Part shown: positions 1-63,037 of the stretch, piece after piece
How the letters are laid out: each line of letters starts with the position of its first letter
How positions within the stretch are numbered: the stretch's first letter is position 1
Assembly (NCBI GenBank): GCA_963848835.1
Contig: CAWKFB010000007.1
Coordinates: forward strand, 6,366-70,365
Length of the DNA: 64,000 nucleotides
Direction of reading: 5' to 3'
From: Candidatus Aminicenantes bacterium
GTDB lineage: Bacteria; Acidobacteriota; Aminicenantia; Aminicenantales; UBA4085
Notes under the pieces: generated by a model
What the model saw: the letters and a program-made list of their open reading frames with translations, nothing else
Database searches by the model: none
Told to the model about the DNA's origin: nothing
Position numbers and translations under genes: made by a program

Positions 1-107
1 CCCGAGGAGCAATCCCGGAAGTGTCATTGAAGTGTCAACTACCTGACCGGCATTTAAAAAACCACAAAGGGACATTTATGTAACTCCCTGTATTGAATGA
101 CTTTAAA

Positions 108-9716: not shown

Positions 9717-10751
9717 CGAAATGCTCCTTGAGCTCCCCGGCCGGGATCGAGCGGATGATCGCCCGGCCGATCGCGCCTTTCAGGAGGACGAAGCGCACGG
9801 CATCACCGGCCCGTTTCTTGTCTTTGTCCATCGAGGAGAGGCGCGCGCCGCTGACCGGCCCGCGGACGTGGGAAGCCCGAGGGACCGGAGAAGCCGGATG
9901 AGCCGCGCGGCTTCGGTTTCGGGCAGAAGCCCCAGCCGGGCCGAGATCCGGGCGGCCGCGCACATCCCGACCGCGACCGCCTCGCCGTGGCGGAATCGCC
10001 CCTCTCTCTCCAGGGCGTGGCCGAAGGTATGCCCGAAGTTCAAGAGCCGGCGGGGGCCGGTTTCGAGCTCGTCGCGCTCGACGATCCGGGCTTTGAGGCG
10101 AAGCGATCGCTCGATGAGCCCGCGCGTCACGGCCGGATCCAGGGCCAGGGCTTTCCCGGCATGGCGCTCGAGGTCCCGGAACATGCCCGCGTCGGCGATG
10201 GCGGCGGATTTGACGATCTCGGCCAGTCCGTTGCGGACCTCGCGGCGCGGGAGCGTCTCGAGGAAGCCGGTGTCGATGAGGACGAGGTCCGGCTGTCGGA
10301 TCGTCCCGATCAGGTTCTTGAAGCGGTCGAGGTTGACGCCGTTCTTCCCTCCGAGGCAGGCGTCGGCCTGGGCCAGGAGCGTCGTCGGCACGATCACGAG
10401 CCGGAGCCCCCGCATGTAGAGGGCCGCGGCCAGGCCGGCCACGTCGCTCACGAGGCCGCCCCCCACGGCCGCGACGGTCGTCGTCCGGTCGGCCCCGGCG
10501 CGCAGGAGGCGCTTGAGCAGGTCATCCACCGCGGCGAGCGTTTTACGCCCTTCTCCCCGTCCGGCGAACAGCACGCGCCAGCCCGAGAAAAAGCTCCGGT
10601 GAAGGCCGAAGACGCGGCGGTCGGTGACCAGGATCGAGCCCGCCCGCGGGCAATGATCCTCGAGCCGGGCGGGCCCGTCGAGGAACGCGATCCGGGTGCG
10701 CGCGTCCGGCCTTCGGAGCCTCAATGGCCTCATTGGAGCCGCTCCCAACAT
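9703..10751 (-). CDS. aroB: 3-dehydroquinate synthase, frameshift near 9800-9850
   Basis: [44 protein letters not shown].., [21 protein letters not shown]. The C-terminus continues in the frame of ORF 9703..9963 ([25 protein letters not shown]). Confidence 0.75.
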
Positions 10752-27962: not shown

Positions 27963-28184
27963 CGGGATCAGTTCTTAGTTATCCCCCTTGAAATTCAGCG
28001 GGGGGCAAAAGGACGGCGGGAGAAGGCGCCGCCTTAGGCGGGCGAAGAGCCGAAGACGCCTCCACACCTCTCCCGCGACGTTGAAGATTGCCCAGGACGT
28101 CCCCGGATTTTCTTATTGATTTCTAACCCCCGGCCCCCTTGCGACAAACAAGGGGGAATTGTCGACGTCCTGGGAGATGTGGGA

Positions 28185-28256
28185 TGGGCGATACTGGATT
28201 TGAACCAGTGACTCCTACCGTGTGAAGGTAGTACTCTGCCGCTGAGTTAATCGCCC
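28185..28256 (-). tRNA. tRNA-Val (anticodon CAC)
   Basis: Reverse complement GGGCGATTAACTCAGCGGCAGAGTACTACCTTCACACGGTAGGAGTCACTGGTTCAAATCCAGTATCGCCCA: 7 bp acceptor stem, anticodon stem CTACC/GGTAG, loop TTCACAC, T loop TTCAAAT; CCA not encoded. Confidence 0.75.
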
Positions 28257-28355
28257 AGCCGGCGTTAAAATAGCATTTTTCCCCGGGCGACACAATATCG
28301 CTTCCTGCCCCCTAAAGCGTTGACTTTGCCCTTGTTTCCCCCTATAAATAAGGTA

Positions 28356-37754: not shown

Positions 37755-38467
37755 CTTTTTTTCAACCGATACCCGGCTTTGCGGACGCAGGCGCGGGCGC
37801 CGATCGTCATGGGCTCGATGAGAGGGACGGCGAGGTCTTCCGGCCGCAGGACGAGAGGCACCTCGGTGCAGCCGGCGATGATCGCGTCCGCCCCGCGCGC
37901 GATGAGGCGCCGGGCCATAGTGATGATGGTCGTCCGCGGCCGGCCGGAGGTGACGCCCGCTTTGATCCCGCCGGGGCCGATGATCGCGTCCATGACCCGA
38001 TCCTGTTCGGCCGGGGAAGGGGCGATGACCCCGACGCAGGCCTTGGCGAACGTCGCCGTCCAGAGGCCGGAGGCGACCGTGCCGGAGCTGGCGATGAGCC
38101 CGATCGTGTGGACGCGCGGGAGGCTCTTTCGGGCGTAGGCGAGCGTCTCGTCGAGAAGGCTCACGAACGGGACGCGGGCGGACTTGCGGATCTCGGCCGC
38201 CCAGTAGTGGGCCGTGATGCAGGGCATGACGATGAGCCCGGCGCCGCCCTTTTCGAGCCGCCGGACGCCGGCGCGAAGGCGGGGGAGGGGGCTCGGCCCG
38301 GTGCCGAGGATGGCGTCGGTCCGGGGCGGGACGGCGGGATCGCTCCATACGAGCGTCGGGATATGCTCCTGATCGACCGACGCTTCCGTTTGGGCGATCA
38401 CGGCTTTGAAAAAGAAAGCCGTCGCCTCCGGCCCCATTCCGCCCAATATTCCCAGTATCTTTTTCAT
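37751..38467 (-). CDS. Asp/Glu/hydantoin racemase family protein
   Basis: MKKILGILGGMGPEAT..VMPCITAHYW..IAGCTEVPLVL: two-cysteine racemase pattern. Confidence 0.75.
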   Translation of the reverse strand: MKKILGILGGMGPEATAFFFKAVIAQTEASVDQEHIPTLVWSDPAVPPRTDAILGTGPSPLPRLRAGVRRLEKGGAGLIVMPCITAHYWAAEIRKSARVPFVSLLDETLAYARKSLPRVHTIGLIASSGTVASGLWTATFAKACVGVIAPSPAEQDRVMDAIIGPGGIKAGVTSGRPRTTIITMARRLIARGADAIIAGCTEVPLVLRPEDLAVPLIEPMTIGARACVRKAGYRLKKS

Positions 38468-39600
38468 TTAAAAATCCCTTTGAGCTTGTCGAGCGGAAGC
38501 GGCTCGGCGACGTGCTTCTCGTAGCCTTCGACGCGGGTGGCCTTGAACAGGGAGTTGAGGATGGCCTCTTCCGCCGCTTCGGCCGCGGCGAGAAAGAGCG
38601 GCGAGATATTCTCGTTGCGGAGGAGCGTCACGGTCCGCGTCGGCGCCGGCGCGCGGTGAGGGACGCGAACCTCGGATGCCGTGGAAAAGGCGATGATGAA
38701 ATCGCCGCTTCCGTTGGAGTTGTATCCGCCCGTCCGGTGGATGCCGATCCCGGCCCTCTGGGCCAGCCGCTCCAGGTTCCGGGCGTCGAGAGGGGCGTCC
38801 GTGGCGACGACGATCATGATCGAGCCCTGGACGACCGGATCGGACGGCCGCCCCGAATCGAACGGGAAGGCCGACGGGCTTTCTTTCAGGAGATCGGCGA
38901 CGCGCGTCCCCGCGATCTGGAAGACCCCGCCGTGGTTCGATTGGACGATCACGCCGACTGTGTATCCGCCCTGGCGGGCCGGGAGCTTCCGCGAGCTCGT
39001 CCCGATGCCGCCCTTGTACCCGTAGCACATCGTGCCCGTGCCTGCCCCGACCGATCCCTCCGCGACCGGACCGCCCGCCGCTTTGCGGATCGCCTCGAGG
39101 ACGTGCTCTTTCCGGACATGCCGGCCGCGGATGTCGTTCAGGAAGCTGTCGTTGGTCTCTCCGACGACGGGATTGACCGACACGACGCCCTCGTTCCCCG
39201 GCAGGCCGAGGATGTAATCCAGAACGGCGTCCGCGGCAGTCGGGACGCTGAGCGTGTTGGTCAGGACGATGGGCGTCTCGATGGTCCCGATCTCGCGGAC
39301 TTGGTTCGTGCCGGTCAGCTTGCCGAATCCGTTGGCCACGAAGACCGCTCCCGGGACCTTGTCCTGGAAGATGTTCCCCGTATGGGGCAGGATGGCCGTG
39401 ACGCCGGTCCGGACGTCCGTACCCTCGATGATCGTGACCTGTCCGACCGCCACGCCCGCGACATCGGTGATGGCGTTGAGCGGGCCGGGCTCGAGGACGC
39501 CCGTCTTGATCCCGAATTCCCGGGCCCGAGGCCGTTCGGCCGGGGTCTGGACGGCGGCCGCGGCGAACGCGGCGAGGATGAGCAGCGCGAAAATCTTCAT
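38464..39600 (-). CDS. DmpA/ArgJ-fold peptidase S58 (L-aminopeptidase / D-Ala-esterase-amidase-like), secreted
   Basis: Signal peptide; GVAVGQVT..TGVTAILPH.. and the self-processing site region GAGTGTMCYGYKGGIGTSS. Confidence 0.75.
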   Translation of the reverse strand: MKIFALLILAAFAAAAVQTPAERPRAREFGIKTGVLEPGPLNAITDVAGVAVGQVTIIEGTDVRTGVTAILPHTGNIFQDKVPGAVFVANGFGKLTGTNQVREIGTIETPIVLTNTLSVPTAADAVLDYILGLPGNEGVVSVNPVVGETNDSFLNDIRGRHVRKEHVLEAIRKAAGGPVAEGSVGAGTGTMCYGYKGGIGTSSRKLPARQGGYTVGVIVQSNHGGVFQIAGTRVADLLKESPSAFPFDSGRPSDPVVQGSIMIVVATDAPLDARNLERLAQRAGIGIHRTGGYNSNGSGDFIIAFSTASEVRVPHRAPAPTRTVTLLRNENISPLFLAAAEAAEEAILNSLFKATRVEGYEKHVAEPLPLDKLKGIFK

Positions 39601-40285
39601 GGTTTGCTCCCTGCCCCGCTATCTTACCGCTTGGGTTTCTCCCCGACAAGTGCGACGCATAAGACCGGGGCTCCCGGAGGGCTTCCTGATCGGGACGCGG
39701 ATTTTTCCCAGCGAGAAAAATCCGCTCCCCGTGCTCGCTCGCTCTCCTCTCCCTCCGGTCGCGGAACCGTGCCCGCTTCGCTGCGCTGGCCCGCTCAGGG
39801 AGCCCCCCTCGCGCCCCGGATACATCAGACCGATTCGTCGGCGTTCGGGATGGGAACGGAGCGAATTCCGTCCCACGATCGGCCGTCGGGCGCGCGAGCC
39901 TGACGATCGGATGACTCGGTCGATGAGCGCCGGGACGCTTTTAAGACTCATCATATTCATCTACCCCACCTACCGCCCCTAAAACTAGGGGCGGACTGGC
40001 GGTAAGCGTCCCTCCGAGCACGTCGCTCATCAGGGTGACGCAGCGAATCGGCCGAGTCAGTCCGCGTCAGGATTTGCGAAAGCTAGCGCACTATCGCGGG
40101 CCGGTCGCGTTTTATATTGCGGGGCGCGAGGGGTGAGGGTTCGAGGGACATACGGAGGCGAGCGGGCACGGATTCCCAGCCGCAGGCTGGGAAGAGCGAG
40201 CCGGAGAACGAGCCGGTTCCCTCGCCGGGGGAACCGGCGTGCCCGAGAACCCTTACCCCGGAAGCCCCGTGTTATAATCGCGGCG
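39600..40285. repeat. repeat-dense non-coding island with members of a hairpin-forming intergenic repeat family
   Basis: 685 bp without a credible ORF; contains CCCCTCGCGCCCC (about 39793) and its inverse GGGGCGCGAGGGG (40112), plus hairpins CCGCCCCTAAAACTAGGGGCGG and CCGGTTCCCTCGCCGGGGGAACCGG. Confidence 0.5.
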
Positions 40286-40993
40286 ATGAGCGAAGAGAAA
40301 TACCTGACGGTCGGGGCGCTCGAGCGCGTCCCGGGCCTCGTCCACGGCTTCGGCACTCGGTCGCTCGACCTTCCCTCGCTGCGGCGGCTCGCCGCCGCGG
40401 CCCGCTGTCGGATCGTCATGCTCTCCCAGGTCCACTCCGCCGACGTCGTTATCGCCGGTCATGCCCCTCGGCCGCGCGCGCCCCGCCCCAAGGGCGACGC
40501 CCTGATCACGGATCGGCCGGGACTTCTCCTTGTCATCAAGACCGCGGATTGCCTTCCCGTCCTTCTCGTCGATCCGGAGAAACGCCTCGCCGCGGCCGTT
40601 CACGCCGGATGGCGCGGCACGCGCTTGCGGATCCTGGAGAGGACCGTCGCCGCGCTTATTTCCCGCTACGGCAGCCGTCCTTCCGACCTCCTTTCCGCCT
40701 TCGGCCCATGCATCGGCGCGGCGTGCTACGAGGTCGGGGAGGACGTCCGCCGGGAGTTCGTCTCCGCCGGCCTGTCGCGACGCGATTTCCGCAGCTCGCC
40801 GGCCCGGCCCGGCGCGTTCCTCTTAGACCTGGCCGGGGCGAACCGGCGGCAGCTCGTTTCCCGCGGCCTCTCGCCGCGCCGGGTCTTTGCCGCCGACTCC
40901 TGCACGCACTGCGACCCGCGCCTCCTCTCCTTCCGGCGCGACCGAGACGCTCACGCCCGCCTCTACAATTTCATCGGCTTCCGCCCCGATTGA
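40286..40993 (+). CDS. pgeF: YfiH/PgeF-family (DUF152) purine nucleoside phosphorylase / peptidoglycan editing factor
   Basis: MSEEKYLTVGALERVPGLVHGFGTR..MLSQVHSADVV..TADCLPVLL..HAGWRGT..CIGAACYEVG..CTHCD. Confidence 0.75.
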   Translation: MSEEKYLTVGALERVPGLVHGFGTRSLDLPSLRRLAAAARCRIVMLSQVHSADVVIAGHAPRPRAPRPKGDALITDRPGLLLVIKTADCLPVLLVDPEKRLAAAVHAGWRGTRLRILERTVAALISRYGSRPSDLLSAFGPCIGAACYEVGEDVRREFVSAGLSRRDFRSSPARPGAFLLDLAGANRRQLVSRGLSPRRVFAADSCTHCDPRLLSFRRDRDAHARLYNFIGFRPD

Positions 40994-41099
40994 CGCCAGT
41001 CCAGCAGGCGGTCCGTCCACAGCTACTCCCCGAAATTTCAAGATTGCCCTTGCGCAAAGGGGATCTTCGAAATTCGCCGATGGCAAACGGAAGCTTGCC

Positions 41100-41265
41100 G
41101 AAACGCCGGCCCCGGGGCGCGAGGGGGAAGGATTCGAACCACGAAATTCTGAAAAACTCTCCTAGCGGAGGGATTGCCCATGCGCGAACCTCAATCAAAC
41201 GGGGCGCGAGGGGATAGGGTTCCCGGGAGCCCCGCTCATGTGAGCGTGGGGCAATCCCGGAGCGT
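41100..41265. repeat. two adjacent copies (one partial, one full) of the intergenic repeat family
   Basis: Full copy at 41166-41262: GGAGGGATTGCCC ATGCGCGAAC .. GGGGCGCGAGGGG ATAGGGTTCCC GGGAGCCCCGCTC ATGTGAGCG TGGGGCAATCCCGGAGC. Terminal GGGATTGCCC/GGGCAATCCC inverted ends. Confidence 0.5.
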
Positions 41266-41338
41266 CGACTTTTAGGCCGAATTTCGGTATGATGGACCCT
41301 GCTCGCGAATTCCCAGGAACCCTAGATCACGGTGCAAC

Positions 41339-48448: not shown

Positions 48449-48449
48449 A

Positions 48450-48884
48450 ACGGGGCTCCGGGGTCGCCCAACGGCTCACGAAGGATGTTCGCCAGGGAAC
48501 CCCCTCGCGCCCAAGCAGGAAGTATCCGCGCAAGTCTGCGATAGCGACGGGACCCGGCTGCGGCCGCTGATGGTTCGCTGCGTCACCTGGCGAGTCGACT
48601 CCGCTCCCGTCCGCCAGTCCGAGCAGCCGTTTTGCGGAATTGGCTCCCGTTGGGGTGATCAGGCCGTCGGAGCAGGGTGAGGCAGATTCTCAGACTAATT
48701 CGAAAAACCGAGGAGGCGGCAAGTTCGAAATATGGTAGGGCGAGGGGAGTTCCCTTCGGAAGCCAGCGCAGCGGAGCGGGCATGGTTCCTCGCCCAAAGG
48801 GAGAGGAGAGCGGAGCGAGCACGAGGAGCGAATTTCCACGCTGGAGGAAATTCGCGTCTTCCGAAGGGAATTCCCCGCAGCCCG
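48450..48884. repeat. repeat-dense non-coding island (intergenic repeat family, inverted copy at 48452-48525; second copy at about 48741-48800)
   Basis: Reverse complement of 48452-48525 reads GGGGCGCGAGGGGGTTCCCTGGCGAACATCCTTCGTGAGCCGTTGGGCGACCCC; hairpin CGAATTTCCACGCTGGAGGAAATTCG at 48841-48866. Confidence 0.45.
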
Positions 48885-49370
48885 TTACATTTTATATTTG
48901 CCGAATTCCTCGGGGGAGAGGGCCTCGAACCACTTGCGGAGGTTCTCCGAGCTCTCCAGGCTGTCCTCGAGCTTCATGCCGTGGGCCTTGTGGACGACTT
49001 CCTCTTCGACAAAGATGGGGGAGGCCATCCGTAAAGCCAGGGCGATGGCGTCGGAGGGGCGGGAATCGATGACGACCTCGCGGTCCAGATGGCGGCAATG
49101 GATGGCGGCGTAGAATGTATTGTTGCGGACGTCGGTGACGACGATGCGGTCCACGGCGATATCGAGGCCGTTGAAGACGTTGCGGAGGAGGTCGTGCGTC
49201 ATCGGCCGGGGCGTCGTGACCCGCTCGATGGTCAGGGCGATGGCGTTGGCCTCGTAGGTCCCGATCCAGATGGGAAGGATCCGTCCCCCGGCCGCGTCCT
49301 CGAGGAGGACGATGGGCATCTTCGAGATCGGGTCGACGACTAGGCCCTTGAGTTTCATCTCGATTTCCAT
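48885..49370 (-). CDS. bifunctional nuclease (BFN/DUF151) family protein
   Basis: MEIEMKLKGLVVDPISKMPIVLLEDAAGGRILPIWIGTYEANAIAL..RPMTHDLL.. matches DUF151. Confidence 0.7.
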   Translation of the reverse strand: MEIEMKLKGLVVDPISKMPIVLLEDAAGGRILPIWIGTYEANAIALTIERVTTPRPMTHDLLRNVFNGLDIAVDRIVVTDVRNNTFYAAIHCRHLDREVVIDSRPSDAIALALRMASPIFVEEEVVHKAHGMKLEDSLESSENLRKWFEALSPEEFGKYKM

Positions 49371-52967: not shown

Positions 52968-53006
52968 CCGGCCCGGCGCCCTTCGGGGCGCCGGGCCATT
53001 TTTTTA
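52968..53006 (+). terminator. rho-independent terminator after the TonB-dependent receptor gene
   Basis: CCGGCCCGGCGCCCTTCGGGGCGCCGGGCC followed by ATTTTTTT. Confidence 0.8.
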
Positions 53007-54126
53007 ATCGGGGGACGTAGCACTCATTCCCCGATTTCGTATAACAAAAATCGTCAGATGGCGGCTTTTATTTCTCTTTATCGGGGGACGTAGCACTTAT
53101 TCCCCAATTTTGTTCTAACAATAAACGTCAGATTGGGGGCTTTTATTTCTCGGGATCGAGGCCCTGGAAAACGGGCGATGTCAAAATCTCCATCCTTCTT
53201 TTCCTTCCCGCCGACTTTGGCGCGAGAGACCGCCCTGCCAGCCTTTCGAGATTTTCGATGAATTCCTTTGATCCAAGCGGCCGTCCTGTTCGCGCGTGGA
53301 GCTTGATCTCTCTTTCGAGTTCAGGTGAATCTTCCGCCTGGAGAAAGAGGGACCAATCCGGAACATCAATGAACTCGCGAATATCCGTCAGCCGGAGAAG
53401 TGATTTCCGCGTTCCGGATACGTGCTCCGCGGCGCTCGACCAGGGATAGTCTTCAGCCTTTTTAACGAGGCCGGCTTTGACCGGATTTCGCTCCGTATAT
53501 CTAACGCAATTGAATAGATAGGCGGCATCCATTGGAAAGGAATGATAACGGCCATCCCAGAGATTGCCGGTCCAGCTCTCCCTGGCGTTGATGATCAGAG
53601 TGTATTTCCTCTTTATTTCCGCAATACATTTGGCGAAGCTTGATTCCGTCTTGGGGATTGCGTTCAGGTGGAAGTGGTTGTTCATAAGGCAATACGCTAG
53701 GAACACGACACCGAATTTCTCTCCGCATTCATCTAAAAGCTTGAGAAAGAGCATTTTATCCGAGTCGAGGATGAAGACGTCGGCTTTATGATTCCCCCGA
53801 TTATAGATGTGAAACGGAACACCTGGGAAAACGACTCTCGCAATTCTGGGCATCGGGTTCATCTCCAGATGTCGATATTGAGCTCAATAAAACGAACGTG
53901 TCCCGGAATGTCAATTTCTCACTCTGGAGACGGAAACAATGGCTATTCATCGAAGGAATATATTGGGCTTCGGTTAGCCCATAATAGATTGATATAAAAT
54001 GAGTTACCTGTGTTAAGCAAAGAATCAGAATTCAACACTCTGGCGGGGTAAAAAGAATCCGAGCAGTGGTTATTACGGCGAGAAGTGATTGACGAAATTT
54101 GCTTACGAAATCGGGGAATAAGTGCT
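53007..54126 (-). mobile_element. REP-RAYT unit: IS200/IS605-like Y1 (HuH) REP-associated tyrosine transposase flanked by REP hairpins
   Basis: Two direct ~72 bp units carry the REP ATCGGGGGACGTAGCACT(C/T)ATTCCCC (53007-53035, 53080-53106). An inverted copy ATCGGGGAATAAGTGCTACGTCCCCCGAT lies at 54098-54126. The block is AT-rich compared with its surroundings. Confidence 0.75.
53143..53862 (-). CDS. REP-associated tyrosine transposase (RAYT, Y1 HuH transposase IS200-like)
   Basis: FHIYNRGNHKADVF..LAYCLMNNHFHLNAIP (HuH motif), catalytic Tyr region ..RYHSF..; 239 aa. Confidence 0.8.
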   Translation of the reverse strand: MNPMPRIARVVFPGVPFHIYNRGNHKADVFILDSDKMLFLKLLDECGEKFGVVFLAYCLMNNHFHLNAIPKTESSFAKCIAEIKRKYTLIINARESWTGNLWDGRYHSFPMDAAYLFNCVRYTERNPVKAGLVKKAEDYPWSSAAEHVSGTRKSLLRLTDIREFIDVPDWSLFLQAEDSPELEREIKLHARTGRPLGSKEFIENLERLAGRSLAPKSAGRKRRMEILTSPVFQGLDPEK

Positions 54127-54137
54127 ACGTCCCCCGA

Positions 54138-56402
54138 TTATTTCTTAATAAGACGCGCGAGCTCGGCGCGGGCGCCGGCGATCTTTTCTTCCGGCTCGCC
54201 CTGCGGCGCCTGGAGGTACTGCTCGAGGCAGCGGATCGCGTCGGCGGTCTGCCCCTTCTCCCGGTAGGCGAGGGCCAGGTTGTACAGCGCGTCGGGATTG
54301 GGCCCCCCGGCGAGGATGCGGTTGAAGCACTCGATGGATTTGTCGAAATTCCGGGTCATCCCGTAGGCGATCCCGAGCTGGCGGAGGAAGCCGATCTCCT
54401 TTGGATAGTCCCGGGAAAGCCTTTCCAGGACCCCGATCGCCTCCTCGAGCCGTCCGCTCGTGGCGAGATTTCCCGCGTAAGCGGTCCGAAGGAACTTGTT
54501 CTCCGGCTCGGCCGCCAATCCCTCCTCAAAATAGGCGCTCGCTTCGGCCTTTTTCCCCGTGTTGTCCAGGATGACCGCGACGGCCGTCAGGGCGTCGATC
54601 GACTTCGGGTTTCGTTGGAGCGCCTCGCTCATCGTCCCGAACGCTTCCTGCGTCCGTCCCTCGACGAGATACGTGTAGCCGAGCCGCAGCAGCAGCGTCT
54701 CGTTCCCCGGGATGCGCTCCAAGCCGAGCTTGAGCGTCGCCACCGCGGCGTCCATCTTCTTCTCCCGGGCCTGGACCAGGGCCAGGCTGACATACGAGGA
54801 CGCGGAAAACGGCCGGAGGCCGACCATCCTTTCATATAGGGCGGCCGCCGTGGCGAGATCGCCTCGGAATTCCGCGTTTTCGGCGTCCTGGTACATTTTC
54901 AGCTCGTCGCGCTTGTCCTTGGGATCGGGCTCGAGGGCCGAAGCTCCGCTCGCGCCCGCCTCCCCGGCTCCCTTATCCGAGAAGCCGACGTATCCGAGCG
55001 AGCGGAGCCGGCTCTCTTCCTCGGCGGTCAGCGTCCTCTTCCCTGAGGCGGCGCCGGGGGCGAGGCTGTCCTTGACCGTCCGGTCGAGCCCGTCGCGCAT
55101 CTCCCGGACGGTCCGCGCCTCCCCGACGATGCGGTTGTCCCGCTCGCCCGGGTCGCGGCCGAGGTCGTACAGCTCCTCCTTGGGGGCGCGGATGTATTTC
55201 CAGTCCTTGACGATGAGCCCGCTGAGCGGAGCCCAGCCGAAATTCTCTCTCGGGTAGTACGTCTCGATATAAGTATCGAGATCGGCCCGCTCCTTTTTCC
55301 GGATGTAGGGGAGAAGGCTCACGCCTTGCGTTCCCTCCGGAGCGGGGCGGCCCATCAGATCGAGAACGGTCGGCATCAGGTCGATCAGCCGGACCCGGGG
55401 CGCGACGACGGCCCCCGCCGGCAAATGCCCCTCGGCCGCCATGATGAGCGGCACGCGGAGCGTCTCGTCGTAGAGGAAGACGCCGTGCCCCCATTCGCCT
55501 TTGTCGCCCAAGCCCTCGCCGTGGTCGCCGGCCACGACGACCACGGTCCGCCCGAGGAGACCGCGGTCGCGGAGCTTGGCCATGACCCGGCCGAAGACGA
55601 AGTCCATGTACGCGATCTCTCCGTCGTACGGCCGGCCGGAGAATTCCTCGCTGTACGGCGAGGGCGGGTTGTAGGGGATGTGGGGATCGAAGAAATGGAC
55701 CCAGCCGAAGAACGGTTCGGCCGGGTTGGCGTCCATCCAGTCCGAAAAGAGGCCGTAGACCTGTTCGGCCCGCCGCTCGGCGTTCGCCGCCTTGAACGGC
55801 GATCCTTCCTGGTAGTTGTCGTCGTAGTGGTCGAAACCTTGGGCCAGCCCGAAGCGCGAATCCACCGAGAACGAGGCGACGAAGGCCGCCGTGGCGTAGC
55901 CGTCGGCCTTCAGGACCTCGGCCAACGTCGTCCGGTCCGCCGCAAGCTCATACGCGCCGTTATTATGGACGCCGGTCGCGACCGGGTTCTGCCCGGTCAT
56001 GATCGAGGCGTGGCTCGGGAGCGTCAGGGGGACCGGGGCGTAGGCGTTGGAAAAGCGCACGCCGGACGCGGCCAGAGCGTCGAGATTGGGCGTCTTGACT
56101 CCCGCCGCCCCGTAGCATCCCAGATGGTCGGCCCGGGTCGTGTCGAGGGTGATGAGCAGGACGTTGAGGCGCTCCCCGCGGCTGACGGCCGGGCCCCCGC
56201 GGAGAAGGAAGAAAGCCGCGATCGCGGCCAGGATCAGGACGGCCGCGATGCCTAGGGAAGCTGTTCTTCGCGGCGGGCGCTTTCCGGCCGGCGCGGGAGC
56301 GGGGGCCGGTCCGGACGCGCGGACGGCCGGCTTGGGCCCATCGGGGCGGGGCCCCTCCGTTCGGTCCGGCCGGCGCGGCTTGTGGTGCTTGCGTTTCGCC
56401 AC
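54138..56402 (-). CDS. sulfatase-family hydrolase (alkaline-phosphatase superfamily) with C-terminal TPR repeats, membrane-anchored
   Basis: TM helix; LNVLLITLDTTRADHLGCYG.., SHASIMTG, GDHGEGLGDKGEWGHG; C-terminal ~300 aa of TPR. Confidence 0.8.
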   Translation of the reverse strand: MAKRKHHKPRRPDRTEGPRPDGPKPAVRASGPAPAPAPAGKRPPRRTASLGIAAVLILAAIAAFFLLRGGPAVSRGERLNVLLITLDTTRADHLGCYGAAGVKTPNLDALAASGVRFSNAYAPVPLTLPSHASIMTGQNPVATGVHNNGAYELAADRTTLAEVLKADGYATAAFVASFSVDSRFGLAQGFDHYDDNYQEGSPFKAANAERRAEQVYGLFSDWMDANPAEPFFGWVHFFDPHIPYNPPSPYSEEFSGRPYDGEIAYMDFVFGRVMAKLRDRGLLGRTVVVVAGDHGEGLGDKGEWGHGVFLYDETLRVPLIMAAEGHLPAGAVVAPRVRLIDLMPTVLDLMGRPAPEGTQGVSLLPYIRKKERADLDTYIETYYPRENFGWAPLSGLIVKDWKYIRAPKEELYDLGRDPGERDNRIVGEARTVREMRDGLDRTVKDSLAPGAASGKRTLTAEEESRLRSLGYVGFSDKGAGEAGASGASALEPDPKDKRDELKMYQDAENAEFRGDLATAAALYERMVGLRPFSASSYVSLALVQAREKKMDAAVATLKLGLERIPGNETLLLRLGYTYLVEGRTQEAFGTMSEALQRNPKSIDALTAVAVILDNTGKKAEASAYFEEGLAAEPENKFLRTAYAGNLATSGRLEEAIGVLERLSRDYPKEIGFLRQLGIAYGMTRNFDKSIECFNRILAGGPNPDALYNLALAYREKGQTADAIRCLEQYLQAPQGEPEEKIAGARAELARLIKK

Positions 56403-57378: not shown

Positions 57379-57530
57379 TTCACGCCTCCACGAGAGTTAT
57401 GATGCAACTTATGTGCCAAAAATGCACACGATAAATGCGCCTGAATTCCGGCAAATCGGTATTTTAGCACGTTCCGCGCGGTAAAGGAAATTGCGTCCGG
57501 CCGGTTCACGAATGAGGTAGATACAAATTC

Positions 57531-58547
57531 CTAAAAGCTCTCTCGGCGGAGGGATTGCCCCGGAGCGAACATTGGGAGGGGGGCCCGGCTTCCGGGGGAA
57601 CCGCAGAGGTTCCCGTGAGCGAGGGGGCAATCCCGAAGCTTCTTCCGCTTCGAGACCGTGCCCTTGTCCGCCGAGTTCGCCAGGGTCACGACGAGAACGC
57701 GCGACTCGGGAGCGGGGGCGAACTCGAGGTCGATGACGTAGAATTCTCCGCGCAGGCCCTCGACCTTCTCTTCGGTCAGGGAGAGCGGATACGCGCTCGA
57801 GCTTTCCTGGGTCTTGGCTCCGGACGCGTCTTCGCCGATCAGCGTGACCGTCAGCGTCGTCCGCAGCTCCTTGTTGTCCCCGGAGGTCATCCAGATCTTG
57901 GCATAGGGAACCCGGAGGCGCACGCCGAGCCCCCCGGCCGGGCTCTTCTTCTCGACCGCCAGGTCGAATTCCAGGAGCGAAGCCCCCGCCTCGACCTGGG
58001 GCTTCCACGCGAGCTGCGTCTTCATGATCGTCGTGAGCTGGGCCGGGCTGGACGGATCGAGCCGGTAGTTCCCGGTCCAATCCGGATCGACGAAGACGAT
58101 GGGAAAGAACCCGTAATACCAAACCTCCGTCGGGATGCCGTAGAACGTCACCCCCCGCGGGTAGACCTCGCGCTCGGAAGGCGGGCCGAGGAGGATGTAG
58201 ATCCGGCCGCGGTCCTGGAGCCAGCCCGGCTCGCCGCCGTCGGTGAAGAGGTGATTGGCCTCGTCGATGCGCTGGAAGTACTGCGTCTTGAACTCGTTCT
58301 CCTCGGTGTCCGGGTCGGGGTCCCGTTTCTTCCAGAACTCCTCCATGAAGGCCGGCCGCTCGGCCGACGGCAGATTCAGGAAGATCCGGCGCTCCTCGGC
58401 GGTGACGAGATAGCGGACCTTGGAGATGAATTCGCGGCTCTCGGGCTCCATGCGGCGGATGAGACGGTACGAGCCGCAGGCCGAGGACAGGACGGCCAGA
58501 AGGAGGGCGAGGGCGGGGACGAGCCTGGGCGCGCGGTCCAGGGTCAT
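57531..58547 (-). CDS. GWxTD domain-containing lipoprotein
   Basis: Lipobox LSSAC; ..EFWKKRDPDPDTEENEF..GWLQDRGRIYILLGPP matches the GWxTD signature. The C-terminal about 30 codons are encoded by an intergenic-repeat copy. Confidence 0.65.
   Translation of the reverse strand: MTLDRAPRLVPALALLLAVLSSACGSYRLIRRMEPESREFISKVRYLVTAEERRIFLNLPSAERPAFMEEFWKKRDPDPDTEENEFKTQYFQRIDEANHLFTDGGEPGWLQDRGRIYILLGPPSEREVYPRGVTFYGIPTEVWYYGFFPIVFVDPDWTGNYRLDPSSPAQLTTIMKTQLAWKPQVEAGASLLEFDLAVEKKSPAGGLGVRLRVPYAKIWMTSGDNKELRTTLTVTLIGEDASGAKTQESSSAYPLSLTEEKVEGLRGEFYVIDLEFAPAPESRVLVVTLANSADKGTVSKRKKLRDCPLAHGNLCGSPGSRAPLPMFAPGQSLRRESF
57547..57640. repeat. copy of the intergenic repeat family embedded in the 3' end of a CDS
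   Basis: GGAGGGATTGCCCC GGAGCGAAC .. GGGGGAACCGCAGAGGTTCCC GTGAGCGA GGGGGCAATCCCGAAGC. Confidence 0.5.
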
Positions 58548-62029: not shown

Positions 62030-62085
62030 GCGTCGCGTGGTCTCCGTATGTTTAGACCTTTTCGCGCCCCAATTCAAGTACAATC

Positions 62086-62925
62086 GGCGAGGGCGGTCTC
62101 GCTCGACGGGAAATCCTGACGCTCTGCCTGGCGCTCGAGGCTCCTAGGCGCTGCGCCCTCCGCGCCCCGATGGTCTCCTCGCCGTCCCTTTGTATACGCC
62201 TCAGCGTCTGCAATATGGTCACGTGCTCAAAGCTCGGGATCGCCCCACGCTCACGATGGAATGCTCACCTCCGGGAGCCCTCGGCTCGCCGCCAGATCAG
62301 GCAAGACGCGTCCCCGATGTTCGCTTATCTGCGATCGCTCTCGCAAGCTCCCGCCGACGGCCACGCCGCTGGCCGATTCGCCTGACGTCACTCTGACGAG
62401 GGTCCGCAGGGAAAGCTCCGCGCATCATCCGAGTCGGCCGCACGGTTCAGGCCCGCAGCGAACAGGAGCCGCCGAACCTGTTTCTTCGGCAGGGGAACCG
62501 GTATCGGCGGTTCCCCCCGAAGCGGAACCCCCCTCCACTCTGCACGATCGTCGGTCGTTGTCTGGCCGAAGGAAGCAAGCCGTGTGGCGGGCGATTCGAA
62601 AAAATTCTCTGTAGGGAGGCGAGGTGCGGTTCGAGCGACATCGGGAAATCCCAGCTCTGCGTCCCGAGCTCCGACGGGAAGCCCCGCGCAGCGGGGCTTC
62701 GCCAAATGAAGTGACGCGATTTTTTCTTCGACCATCATATCTGGAAAGATCAAACGGGCGAAGGGATCGCCCGTGAGCGAACATCAGGAGGGGGGGCCCC
62801 GCATTAATTCGGGGGGGAACCAGAAGGGTTCCAACGTGAGCGATGGGCGATTCCGAAGCCCTCCTAGGAGCTCGAGTGACAGGCAGAGCGTCAGGATTTC
62901 CCGTCGAGCGAGGGGCCGCCCTCGC
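62086..62925. mobile_element. transposase-less element bounded by ~65 bp terminal inverted repeats (MITE-like), internally full of the intergenic repeat family
   Basis: 62100-62130 CGCTCGACGGGAAATCCTGACGCTCTGCCTG is the exact reverse complement of 62890-62920. Flanking TCGGCGAGGGCGG and CTCGAG..CTCCTAGG blocks extend the TIR to about 65 bp. No protein-like ORF inside. Confidence 0.55.
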
Positions 62926-63037
62926 CGAATTCCCTTTGATAATTGCCCCCATGTTGCTACAATGAAGGCGCCGGGAGCAGGCCCGGAGAGAGGCGATCCT
63001 GGCATAAAAGTTGCATCTGAATCATCCGGAGGCGGTA

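Follow-up and report, generated by a model that had tools for sequence, protein, structure and literature searches.

The window analysed here, a stretch of 64,000 nucleotides from a contig whose host is an Aminicenantes-type acidobacterium, raises the question of what fills the long spacers between its genes. Aminicenantes are abundant in anoxic sediments, and we know of no cultured model for them and of no described repeat or non-coding RNA biology. The original prediction had proposed a single family of 90-100 bp intergenic repeats that form hairpins and cluster in non-coding islands. The repeats proved to be real, hairpin-forming, intergenic and present beyond chance, but several distinct modules had been merged into the one family. 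The clustering also held, in that the window has five islands that are free of ORFs and flanked by Pfam-confirmed genes, and these islands are pieced together as mosaics from six or more hairpin modules. Two or more of the modules are core, with a length of about 100 nt for A and about 160 nt for B, and no fewer than four are accessory; they combine and nest, and they make up most of the long 'empty' spacers of this contig (Table 1).

Self-comparison by blastn and nhmmer linked the islands to one another with E-values down to 1e-24. The motif GGGGCGCGAGGGG, which is the 5' end of module B, occurs five times when up to one mismatch is allowed, against 1.39 occurrences expected, and none of 100 shuffles contained five or more. 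Folding against shuffled sequences gave z of -7.6 for 40118-40276 and of -3.1 to -4.1 for three copies of A, and this, together with covariation in both A and B, bears out the proposal that the repeats form hairpins.

Table 1. Repeat modules and associated features of the window, in order of position.
Feature	Position	Strand	Basis
Module A, partial right arm GAGGAGCAATCCCGGAAG, truncated at window edge	1..23	+	direct reading; resembles consensus GGGCAATCCCGGAGC
Module B, full, subtype B1	39659..39820	-	covariance model R1, 148.1 bits, E 6e-33
Module C: long stem (..GGATGACTCGGTCGATGAGC / GCAGCGAATCGGCCGAGTC..), then TCCGCGTCAGGATTTGC, then spacer	39889..40117	+	alignment upstream of B, 11 loci
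Module M2, nested in C: outer inverted repeat GGGACGCTT/AAGCGTCCC, hairpin CCGCCCCTAAAACTAGGGGCGG and TAGGTGGGGTAG tail	39928..40018	-	nhmmer
Module B, full, subtype B2	40118..40276	+	covariance model R1, 157.9 bits; MFE -100.8 kcal/mol, z -7.58
Module B, 5' fragment, only 5' strands of P1 and P2	41113..41141	+	79-88% identical to B starts
Module A with conserved 5' leader AAATTCTGAAAAACTCTCC	41144..41262	+	arms by pattern; fold z -3.52
Module A, partial right arm, and B-like 5' motif	48449..48525	-	motif search, direct reading
Candidate copy of module C	48560..48640	-	by-eye comparison with C consensus
Module B, full, subtype B1	48732..48893	+	covariance model R1, 148.6 bits
Module A in typical form; H1 and H2 hairpins in the apex	57544..57641	+	pattern; fold z -3.11
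Long inverted repeat, left arm bounding island 5	62075..62148	+	91-95% complementary to 62863-62937
Module A, degenerate copy	62227..62345	-	self-comparison, pattern
Module X, standalone apex-type (GGAGGGGGGTTCCGCTTCGGGGGGAACC..GGTTCC)	62457..62536	-	85% identical to A apex 57575-57607
Further repeat module, start resembling B 5' end	62590..62712	+	nhmmer
Module A, typical form	62756..62861	+	pattern; fold z -4.08
Long inverted repeat, right arm bounding island 5	62863..62937	-	self-comparison

Module A runs from GGGATTGCCC..GCGAAC through a variable apex to GTGAGCG..GGGCAATCCC, and its arms are mutually inverted, forming terminal inverted repeats like those of MITEs; A and B are also small, non-coding and multi-copy, within the size expected of MITEs (less than about 600 bp). 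The window holds three good copies of A, one degenerate copy, which has no stable overall fold (z about +0.8), and two partial ones. The base stem is 96.8% paired, and no consistent target duplication was found at any offset pair among 21 copies. In the copy upstream of purC (41144-41262) the apex is a 'mini-B' at 41198-41241 (26.1 bits with covariance model R1), the 3' end adjoins the purC promoter-like site at 41265-41293 found by promoter scan, and the arms are kept at the orthologous site in the relatives L026 and L027. The same two relatives keep the outer helix supplied by the partial copy at 48449-48525, which begins directly past the lptFG stop codon. The copy at 57544-57641 lies, by translation, antisense within the 3' end of ORF 57531-58547. 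About 37 codons of one window ORF read through a repeat.

Module B is multi-branched, and the window contains three full copies of it, the 'mini-B' in an A apex and one 5' fragment. These copies are mutually 62-74% identical by global alignment, and 39659-39820 is 81% identical to 48740-48858 by self-comparison. Their 3' ends are placed with respect to genes as follows: that of 39659-39820 faces the peptidase S58 gene (38464-39600, minus strand), that of 40118-40276 overlaps the extended -10 TGTTATAAT of pgeF (ATG at 40287), and that of 48732-48893 coincides with the point (48885) where the convergent BFN-domain gene has its stop codon. Further copies exist in sediment metagenomes, where a pattern with 24 specified bases found B in at least 120 stretches; covariance model R1 gave 102 matches, most of them full length.

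The covariance check that had been proposed found compensatory changes in both modules, in 8 of the 17 base-stem pairs of A and, over about 100 copies, in 44 of the 48 base pairs of B, where both sides had changed. In the alignment of B, 91.7% of cells were paired, compared with 43-57% when the partner columns were slid, and the covariation score was 0.44, compared with at most 0.135 for the slid partners. The pairs included 138 G-U and 37 A-C mismatches, a bias toward one strand. B also carries conserved unpaired motifs, although the conservation of its three anchor motifs in L030-L149 is by construction, because those loci were fetched with the motifs. With 44 of 48 pairs covarying, B ranks among the better-supported unannotated folds obtainable from sequence alone, which makes it ready to be proposed to Rfam and looked for in metatranscriptomes.

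The accessory modules recur as well. Module C, immediately 5' of B at 40118-40276 and broken by M2, was matched by nhmmer in nine loci and M2 in six, with the M2 architecture present in tandem at L150 19838-20060. An nhmmer query with 48525-48735 found no match in the loci, so the assignment of 48560-48640 to C is weak. Module X was matched in L030, L120 and L121, and the module at 62590-62712 in L095, L126 and L105, with E down to 3e-18 (both by nhmmer). Island 5 is bounded by inverted repeats of 74 nt, one arm of which has a further nhmmer match in L105, and a promoter-like site (62936-62963) comes after the right arm. Nesting extends beyond C and M2: five or six of 100 copies of B sit within A arms, in the same orientation.

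Most of the individual copies first listed had to be reassigned. Those at 41166-41262 and 57547-57640 are indeed module A, as is 62762-62850, for which 62756-62861 are better bounds. The stretch at 40100-40260, by contrast, is the 160-nt module B (40118-40276), a different module from A. Four others were reassigned as well: 48741-48800 is merely the first third of B 48732-48893, 41108-41150 is a B 5' fragment, 62470-62540 is a separate minus-strand module of apex type (85% identical over 33 nt to the A apex at 57.5 kb), and 48452-48525 comprises a partial A right arm, on the minus strand. At 1-50, positions 1 to about 23 resemble an A right arm truncated at the window edge and the remainder does not. 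Missing from the list were the full B at 39659-39820 (-), the degenerate A at 62227-62345 (-), the 74-nt inverted repeats of island 5, and modules C, M2 and X.

Copies of B were intergenic in 132 of 133 cases, by gene calls from a crude home-made caller, on which all the context counts for B rest. The genes downstream are unrelated housekeeping genes, with no transposase among them. Where a neighbouring gene is convergent, its stop codon is no more than 10 nt from the B end in about half of the cases, and sigma-70-like promoters concentrate just past that end, 12 of 24 lying at most 10 nt away. In relatives with a PgeF of 68-76% identity the corresponding spacers hold these modules too, but number and orientation differ. 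At the orthologous sites upstream of purC the outer helix is retained and the interior replaced, and the same is true of the lptFG/BFN spacer, which measures 436, 76 and 151 nt in three genomes. The ftsY-recJ spacer of L150, which has B, measures 552 nt, those of L151 and L152 measure 90 and 68 nt respectively, and the B upstream of leuS is present in three of six relatives.

A related lineage provided a signature of mobility. In the Ga0209102 metagenome at least 12 contigs carry B-containing elements that are 96-99% identical within unrelated flanks. These are composite elements of 338-531 nt without ORFs, which end in a 15-nt terminal inverted repeat, CCCGAAATTGCCGAT/ATCGGCAATTTCGGG, and hold an optional internal module of 97-190 nt. 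Perfect 5-bp direct repeats flank three of the six elements that constitute the target-duplication evidence, all from a lineage other than that of the window, and a fourth matches at four of five positions. The terminal repeat does not occur in the window beyond chance, and a search of the fetched loci, about 1.06 Mb in all, turned up no autonomous element, parent insertion sequence or transposase whose ends match.

On balance, then, the islands are probably mosaics of lineage-specific non-coding hairpin modules that are, or descend from, non-autonomous mobile DNA. Among the functions originally offered, a MITE-type element is best supported, because the copies dispersed in the related lineage are almost identical and have terminal inverted repeats and 5-bp target duplications, and because orthologous sites differ by insertion or deletion; a small RNA is disfavoured, and a REP of the strict RAYT type is unsupported. 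We infer that the window copies moved by the same route as the elements of the related lineage. The modules would survive solely where they are harmless, between a stop codon and the -35 box of the next promoter, and would accumulate by insertion beside one another or into each other's apical parts, and we propose that outer helices therefore persist while interiors are exchanged. The fold may have to form in cis, as an intermediate in single-stranded state, or a hairpin strong enough to block read-through may help the host to tolerate an insertion, or even to profit from it. Against mobility stand the low identity among the B copies of the window, the lack of target duplication at module A, the negative searches for the related lineage's terminal repeat in the window and for a matching transposase, and the observation that A arms and outer helices stay at orthologous positions across deep divergence.

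The main rival holds that these are host-selected RNA hairpins, serving as bidirectional terminators, read-through insulators or stabilisers of mRNA ends, multiplied by duplication and recombination and kept by selection on the fold. We regard this as possible, though rather unlikely. It would accommodate the strong covariation with pairing biased to one strand, the outer helices kept at orthologous sites, the placing of elements precisely in the gap from a stop codon to the -35 box that follows, and a minimal 72-nt perfect hairpin in L026 that is flush with both convergent stop codons (z -8.3). It also draws on orthologous B copies that differ by one compensatory change and wobble swaps, which point to selection on resident copies and not on a mobile master copy alone. 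T-rich tails (5 or more T among the 10 nt that follow the helix) point the same way, but they are found on only 25 of 113 copies of B, and most copies lack a U tract. In co-directional spacers, moreover, the copies are oriented at random relative to transcription (24 versus 20), yet an antisense transcript would turn the G-U pairs into A-C mismatches, and of 92 classifiable copies 34 occupy divergent spacers, into which no upstream gene is read. An intrinsic (Rho-independent) terminator calls for a G+C-rich hairpin with a U tract directly behind it, in the orientation of the upstream gene; the hairpin is present, and with the counts just given for U tracts and orientation this identity is a possible one. 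The conserved unpaired motifs and multi-branched 160-nt fold exceed the needs of a terminator, and this reading does not account for dispersed copies that are nearly identical and bear terminal repeats and target duplications. A terminator or insulator function is possible as a secondary or co-opted role of modules that would otherwise be mobile DNA.

A further suggestion, which we think unlikely enough to offer only tentatively, is that the 160-nt B core is more than a hairpin and folds into a nucleic-acid domain for which a specific partner molecule exists. The core is kept across Aminicenantia in at least three unrelated frames, which are the A arms, the C-B arrangement and the MITE with terminal repeats and target duplications. 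B may be what a mobilisation system not yet described recognises in cis when it inserts hairpins beside hairpins or into their apices, or it may be a widespread host RNA or single-stranded-DNA domain captured by mobile elements as an insulator. If true, either would mean that this uncultivated lineage of phylum level has structured elements of a new class.

It is very improbable that the modules are independent small-RNA genes, that is, a multi-copy trans-acting structured RNA of which B is the 3' domain. The conserved fold with conserved unpaired nucleotides would suit such a gene, as would the at least 24-45 nt of extra non-coding sequence, often module C, that always lies 5' of B, and the arrangement of nearby pairs (outward 6, tandem 3, inward 0). 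This reading is disfavoured because only four scattered sigma-70-like promoters lie on the same strand within 400 nt upstream of 80 copies of B, although the same scan readily found the promoters of neighbouring genes; the upstream positions also showed no conserved signal, and Rfam gave no match.

Slightly less probable again are elements of REP/REPIN type whose single-stranded hairpins would be moved by a Y1 transposase (RAYT or IS200-like), for example the one encoded at 53143-53862. The presence of this gene in the window, the strand-biased conservation of the hairpins and the lack of target duplication at module A, as expected of this class of transposase, are consistent with the idea. 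The gene, however, is flanked by its own 37-nt repeat, which self-comparison showed to be a different sequence, as had been predicted, and the related B-carrying element has 5-bp target duplications, which transposases of this class are not known to produce. A REP is an imperfect palindrome of 20-40 nt tagged by GTAG or CGTC (PMC3733652). A and B, in contrast, are units of 100-160 nt with no consistent GTAG or CGTC at either end of the aligned flanks. Double-stranded DNA architecture, in the form of cruciforms or of platforms for nucleoid proteins or topoisomerase upstream of promoters as proposed for BIMEs, is the least probable reading, for while -35 boxes follow directly downstream of the elements, and divergent spacers with promoters often contain them, a cruciform requires pairing on both strands (G-U 138, A-C 37) and the stem sequences, unlike protein-binding sites, vary freely if paired.

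The claim that the repeats are unreported also stood, in that neither plasmid sequences nor viral contigs matched them and no paper on them was found in the searchable literature. Rfam at gathering threshold identified two tRNAs and no repeat in the whole window, and at E<=10 nothing relevant over islands 1, 2, 3 and 5, island 4 (57.5 kb) having been scanned at gathering threshold only. Two specific identities were considered and rejected. Hammerhead ribozymes have CUGANGA and GAAA cores around three helices; module C has GAUGAGC..GCGAAUC (window copy CUGAUGAG), U4 and A15.1 are not conserved among copies, and Rfam hammerhead models gave no match at E<=10. Integron attC sites have RYYYAAC..GTTRRRY boxes where mobile cassettes end on their 3' side, with an integrase nearby; the GCGAAC and GTGAGCG motifs do not fit the R''/L''..L'/R' boxes, and the neighbours of the repeats are syntenic housekeeping genes.

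The module superfamily is probably confined to Aminicenantes-type Acidobacteriota, and its modules can serve as lineage-specific markers for tracking Aminicenantes; they will also break assemblies and mislead gene callers. The pattern of an outer helix kept while the apex is replaced offers a concrete system for the mutual invasion of small hairpin elements, and the modules allow one to ask how bacteria tolerate or use insertions that fall precisely in the gap from a stop codon to the promoter that follows.

In our analysis the modules are best read as belonging with MITEs and with the mosaic repeats of enterobacteria and pneumococci (ERIC, BIME, BOX). ERIC/IRU elements of Enterobacteria and Vibrio are likewise imperfect palindromes of at least 100 nt, strictly intergenic, with pairing kept through compensatory changes, larger variants arising from insertions at fixed internal sites, and no transposase known to be associated. 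The present modules are unrelated to them in sequence and host phylum, B is multi-branched with conserved unpaired motifs, several distinct modules nest, and the element of the related lineage has terminal repeats and 5-bp target duplications, which to our knowledge ERIC lacks. The BIMEs of E. coli are also intergenic clusters of a few modules in variable order and orientation, and this mosaic organisation is common to both; we rejected identity with BIMEs in that the units here are structured modules of 60-160 nt without a GTAG tag, not 35-nt REPs, are unlinked to the local Y1 transposase, and are common in divergent promoter-containing spacers (the 34 of 92 above), whereas BIMEs lie mainly at gene 3' ends and are rare between divergent genes. 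MITEs such as the Correia elements (CREE/NEMIS) of Neisseria are similarly small and non-coding, sit beside promoters or gene ends, occasionally read through into the end of an ORF, as here, and have terminal inverted repeats and short target duplications, as in the Ga0209102 element. The window copies differ from them in being old (62-81% identical) and without target duplication, and in an internal fold kept across class-level divergence while the terminal frames differ by lineage. REPINs resemble module A as a doublet of two inverted arms of about 25 nt in a hairpin of about 100 nt, but the A arms are not themselves palindromic REPs and flank no RAYT, and the A apex is occupied by hairpins that are conserved or by other modules in full. 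The BOX elements of Streptococcus pneumoniae are likewise modular (boxA-boxB-boxC), intergenic and stably structured, with movement unexplained; their linear order is fixed, whereas the modules described here nest in apices and occur in both orientations.

The window has a G+C content of about 65%, and its housekeeping genes are those for peptidase S58, pgeF, purC, groES/EL, lptFG, a GWxTD protein, and CarboxypepD_reg+TPR proteins. Named homologues of PgeF come mostly from Candidatus Aminicenantes (53-58% identity), the closest (68-92%) being metagenome proteins. When the window was compared with itself by blastn and nhmmer, five ORF-free islands, numbered here from left to right, were linked mutually and with no other part of it, and the motif GGGGCGCGAGGGG occurred five times against 1.4 expected, a count reached in none of 100 shuffles. 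Both results bear out the original prediction that repeats recur between ORF-free islands. However, the links fall into separate groups, and therefore more than one repeat family is present, not the single family proposed. GGGGCGCGAGGGG is indeed a repeat, as had been noticed, but it marks the 5' end of a module, B, that is distinct from the other main module, A.

ORF-free islands and copies of modules A and B in the window
Feature	Position	Strand	Remark
Island 1	39601-40285		ORF-free
Island 2	40994-41338		ORF-free
Island 3	48449-48884		ORF-free
Island 4	about 57379-57650		ORF-free
Island 5	62084-63037		ORF-free
Module B	39659-39820	(-)	full copy
Module B	40118-40276	(+)	full copy
Module B	48732-48893	(+)	full copy
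Module A	41166-41262		good copy (folding z = -3.1 to -4.1 for the three good copies)
Module A	57544-57641		good copy
Module A	62756-62861		good copy
Module A	62227-62345	(-)	degenerate copy
Module A	48449-48525	(-)	partial copy
Module A	1-23		partial copy

Module B is about 160 nt long. Its outer helix, GGGGC/GCCCC, is followed by an internal loop, GCGA/GGGA, and by a long second helix of freely varying sequence; at the junction the conserved AGCGGGCAYGG and AGAGCG stand on either side of a small hairpin, and the terminal hairpin carries a conserved loop. The copy at 40.1 kb folds at -100.8 kcal/mol (z = -7.6). A search pattern of three motifs at fixed spacing (24 specified bases) matched at least 120 stretches in the JGI metagenomes, where by our rough estimate random sequence would give fewer than one match per 10^12 bases, and a covariance model trained on six copies recovered about 95 that were full-length and lay on the expected strand. 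Among 99 distinct sequences, 91.7% of cells were paired and the covariation score was 0.44, as against at most 0.135 with slid partners, figures to be read with two cautions: the fetched loci have the three anchor motifs because of how they were selected, and the alignment is fitted to the model. Compensatory changes, whose absence had been named beforehand as an argument against an RNA structure, are present in B, with both sides changed in 44 of 48 pairs. Copies obtained independently of the pattern (in the window and in the metagenome loci L026, L027, L150 and L151) share these motifs and this fold. There are 138 G-U pairs against 37 A-C mismatches, and therefore it is one strand that does the folding.

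At a locus carrying a distant B subfamily, the encoded LeuRS shares 81-83% identity with proteins named Candidatus Desulfaltia and Aminicenantales, a kinship which suggests that B occurs across the class, its taxonomic range being judged from protein neighbours. The closest relative of the window, the 1.1-kb contig L029 (PgeF 92% identical), has parts of B within 1-212, upstream of pgeF: the first 127 nt are inverted, and the last 60 nt, which follow, keep their normal orientation. Either the hairpin has truly inverted internally or the assembly is chimeric at the repeat, and given the shortness of the contig we set it aside as evidence.

The architecture of module A, about 100 nt long, was drawn from thirteen copies in the window and related loci. 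Outermost is a closing GC/GC pair, then a symmetric GGA/GGA loop, the helix GGGAUUGCCC/GGGCAAUCCC and a short helix of variable sequence; there is also a GC-GA-AC/GU-GA-GC segment with tandem G.A and a conserved single strand, ACAUCAGGAAGGGG, and the apex consists of two hairpins, one variable and G/C-only, the other GGAACC..GGUUCC. Pairing in the base stem reaches 96.8% (18-44% in slid controls), with both-side changes in 8 of 17 pairs. In the copy at 41.2 kb the apex is a B cut down to its two basal helices, scoring 26 bits with the B covariance model, and it is because of this reduced B that a single architecture had been perceived. Among the loci compared, A arms are confined to the window's own branch; a strict module-A pattern that fits the window three times gave 25 matches in GTDB species representatives, all of which we regard as chance since they lie in unrelated phyla and none has the right-arm terminus. 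No target duplication was found at any offset around 21 A elements.

The partial A copy at the start of the window adjoins a tRNA-Arg(CCT) gene (108-184); a tRNA-Val(CAC) gene lies at 28182-28257. At 57.5 kb the last ~37 codons of a GWxTD-domain ORF, 57531-58547(-), run antisense through an A copy and end at a stop codon in the A 5' leader (57531-57641 region); the C-terminus of the protein seems to have been replaced or extended by the repeat. A variant right arm (GTGAGC..GGGCAAATCTGAAAAAC) often precedes the A left arm (L026 2440-2900; L093 3950-4200; L115 7130-7260), giving the latter a choice of two partners; pairing with the upstream or the downstream right arm could form two mutually exclusive, attenuator-like hairpins.

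The modules nest in one another. B lies between A arms, in matching orientation, in five or six of 100 copies, and a subset of B copies has module C upstream at a fixed distance, with module X, an A-type apex on its own, further upstream. C is a long stem with the tandem-G.A motif of A flipped, followed by TCCGCGGCAGGATTCGC; the helix motif GCGAAC/GUGAGC of A reappears strand-swapped as GAUGAGC/GCGAAUC, the window copy (39889-40083) reading CUGAUGAG. That copy is broken by M2, another such module. A hammerhead was considered for C and rejected on its core positions, and Rfam gave no hammerhead match. Two tandem 120-nt M2-type units adjoin a B copy at L150 19838-20060, each with an outer inverted repeat CCGAAACGCC/GGCGTTTCGG, a hairpin CCCCTCCTAATTCGCTAGGAGGGG and a tail TAGGGGAGGTTAAT. 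Island 5 (863 nt) is enclosed by 74-nt inverted repeats, 91-95% complementary (62075-62148 and 62863-62937), and forms one large palindromic composite of A(-), a C-like module, X(-), a further module and A(+); the enclosing repeat has one further copy, in L105, and its flanking repeat is possibly 3 bp (AAT), with nothing more seen. Metagenome loci contain further copies of all these modules and of the repeat bounding island 5.

With genes called by a simple codon-usage caller trained on the Pfam-confirmed genes of the window, B was intergenic in 132 of 133 copies. The 3' end of the B model lies a median of 76 nt from a same-strand start codon, and in about half of the convergent cases a stop codon falls within 10 nt of it; the 5' end is always at least 24 nt from the nearest gene, with a cluster at 43-60 nt. 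This gap is best explained if the true unit runs some 40-45 nt further 5' than the model, which accounts for the asymmetry better than polarity does. B copies number 34 in divergent and 14 in convergent spacers, their orientation in co-directional spacers is random (24 versus 20), and pairs less than 600 nt apart face outward in six cases, are tandem in three and never face inward.

Many B copies have the next gene's promoter, a clear TTGACA-17-TATAAT, 1-5 nt past their end; downstream of 80 copies we counted 24 same-strand promoters, 12 lying no more than 10 nt from the B end. A promoter-like site likewise follows directly on the A copy at 41.2 kb and on the right boundary of island 5, and an extended -10 that precedes the pgeF start by eight bases is overlapped by B at 40.1 kb. 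The pgeF extended -10 (TGTTATAAT or TGGTATAAT) lies 8-10 nt 5' of the ATG (window 40263-40289; L027 9990-10003; L029 196-224), and the gene seems to have little or no leader. The -35 box is assigned to the gene and not to B, because B copies facing a convergent gene lack it and the ftsY promoter persists at the orthologous site in relatives without B. GGCAYGG..TTYC was rejected as a sigma-54 promoter, its spacing being two bases short as judged by eye. B thus lies upstream of promoters and outside leaders, and the 42 downstream genes scanned hold 88 different Pfam families, each in at most two genes; a riboswitch or regulon leader was rejected on the position of the promoters and the unrelatedness of these genes.

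At orthologous sites the modules vary within retained frames. The syntenic contigs L026 and L027 (PgeF 76% and 68% identical) have long spacers at matching places, holding A, B and other modules in numbers and orientations that differ from the window. Upstream of purC the A arms, 5' leader and promoter are conserved in all three, and the A apex is different in each: a mini-B, two hairpins or a ~190-nt insert. In the spacer that separates lptFG from the convergent BFN gene, three of three genomes keep an outer helix (GGGGCUCC../..GGAGCCC) flush with both stop codons. Its contents differ: in the window it encloses a 436-nt composite of A, C and B, in L027 a degenerate B, and in L026 a 72-nt perfect hairpin (z -8.3). 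The L026 hairpin (10036-10112, near-perfect; MFE -57 kcal/mol) is built from a pair of inverted A right arms enclosing a GGAACC..GGTTCC hairpin, and looks like a minimal form of the element and a bidirectional terminator. Of six Aminicenantia compared around leuS, three have B upstream of this gene and three gave no B match at E<=1; two orthologous copies are distinguished by a double change, A-U to C-G, and by G-U wobble swaps. The ftsY-recJ spacer is 552 nt in L150 (B plus tandem M2-type units), 90 nt in L151 and 68 nt in L152.

The median pairwise identity of B copies is 66%, and one cluster is 96-99% identical with unrelated flanks; its members are on separate contigs of metagenome Ga0209102, except one from Ga0136652 (L137). 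The Ga0209102 element (338-531 nt) ends in terminal inverted repeats, CCCGAAATTGCCGAT/ATCGGCAATTTCGGG, and contains a left-specific segment, a long stem and the B core; one internal point optionally carries an M2-type insert of 97-190 nt. Of the six elements with both ends, three lie between perfect 5-bp direct repeats (GCCCA, TGATT, TCTTA) and a fourth matches at 4/5 positions, where chance would give a perfect match about once in 1000 per element. At the level of sequence, these terminal repeats and duplications read as the signature of a transposase-mobilised miniature element. In the window the same terminal repeats are matched at chance level only. No autonomous partner was found in the fetched loci, in the interiors of outward-facing B pairs or in the scanned downstream genes, among which there was no transposase; the interior in L036 is an aminotransferase-like ORF (translation judged by eye), and that in L078 holds small uncharacterised ORFs.

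Most simply, the repeats can be explained as non-autonomous mobile hairpin modules, long resident in Aminicenantia. They would survive only in a narrow neutral zone from the stop codon to the next -35 box, where they would accumulate and nest, with some subfamilies continuing to spread. One further premise is needed to explain why the B fold is conserved and strand-biased within three distinct frames. Either movement depends on the fold in cis, or insertions are made tolerable or useful by a strong hairpin that blocks read-through. The latter, as well as the alternative that the modules are host RNA hairpins, is kept alive because outer helices are retained at orthologous sites and compensatory change separates the orthologous leuS copies. 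Independent sRNA genes are disfavoured: no sigma-70 promoter belongs to B itself, only four scattered same-strand promoters lie in the 400 nt upstream of the same 80 copies, and no conserved signal was found 5' of B. Strict REP/RAYT elements (REP, RAYT and TIR as defined in PMC3733652) are contradicted by the Y1 transposase being flanked by different repeats, and cruciform or protein-platform DNA by the bias of G-U over A-C.

The Y1 ORF (IS200-like, RAYT/TIRYT-type; 53143-53862(-)) lies in a low-GC patch (0.48) within 52990-54140. It lies between 37-nt inverted repeats of its own that are 97% complementary (53005-53041 and 54104-54140), and one more copy of the repeat is at 53080-53113. Their sequence is unrelated to A and B, in agreement with the original prediction of another repeat there; a related pair occurs at L027 1223-1314.

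Rfam gave no relevant family for the whole window at gathering threshold and no relevant match at E<=10 over four islands; viral contigs, searched also with the three-motif B pattern, and plasmids gave no match, and the literature searched held no paper connecting Aminicenantes with repeats or RNA motifs, in keeping with the suggestion that the repeats are unreported. Closest in function and organisation are ERIC/IRU, BIMEs, BOX and Correia-type MITEs. In contrast to these, the Aminicenantia modules have conserved unpaired motifs and a B core of other size and branching, nest mutually, and occupy promoter-proximal, divergent spacers.
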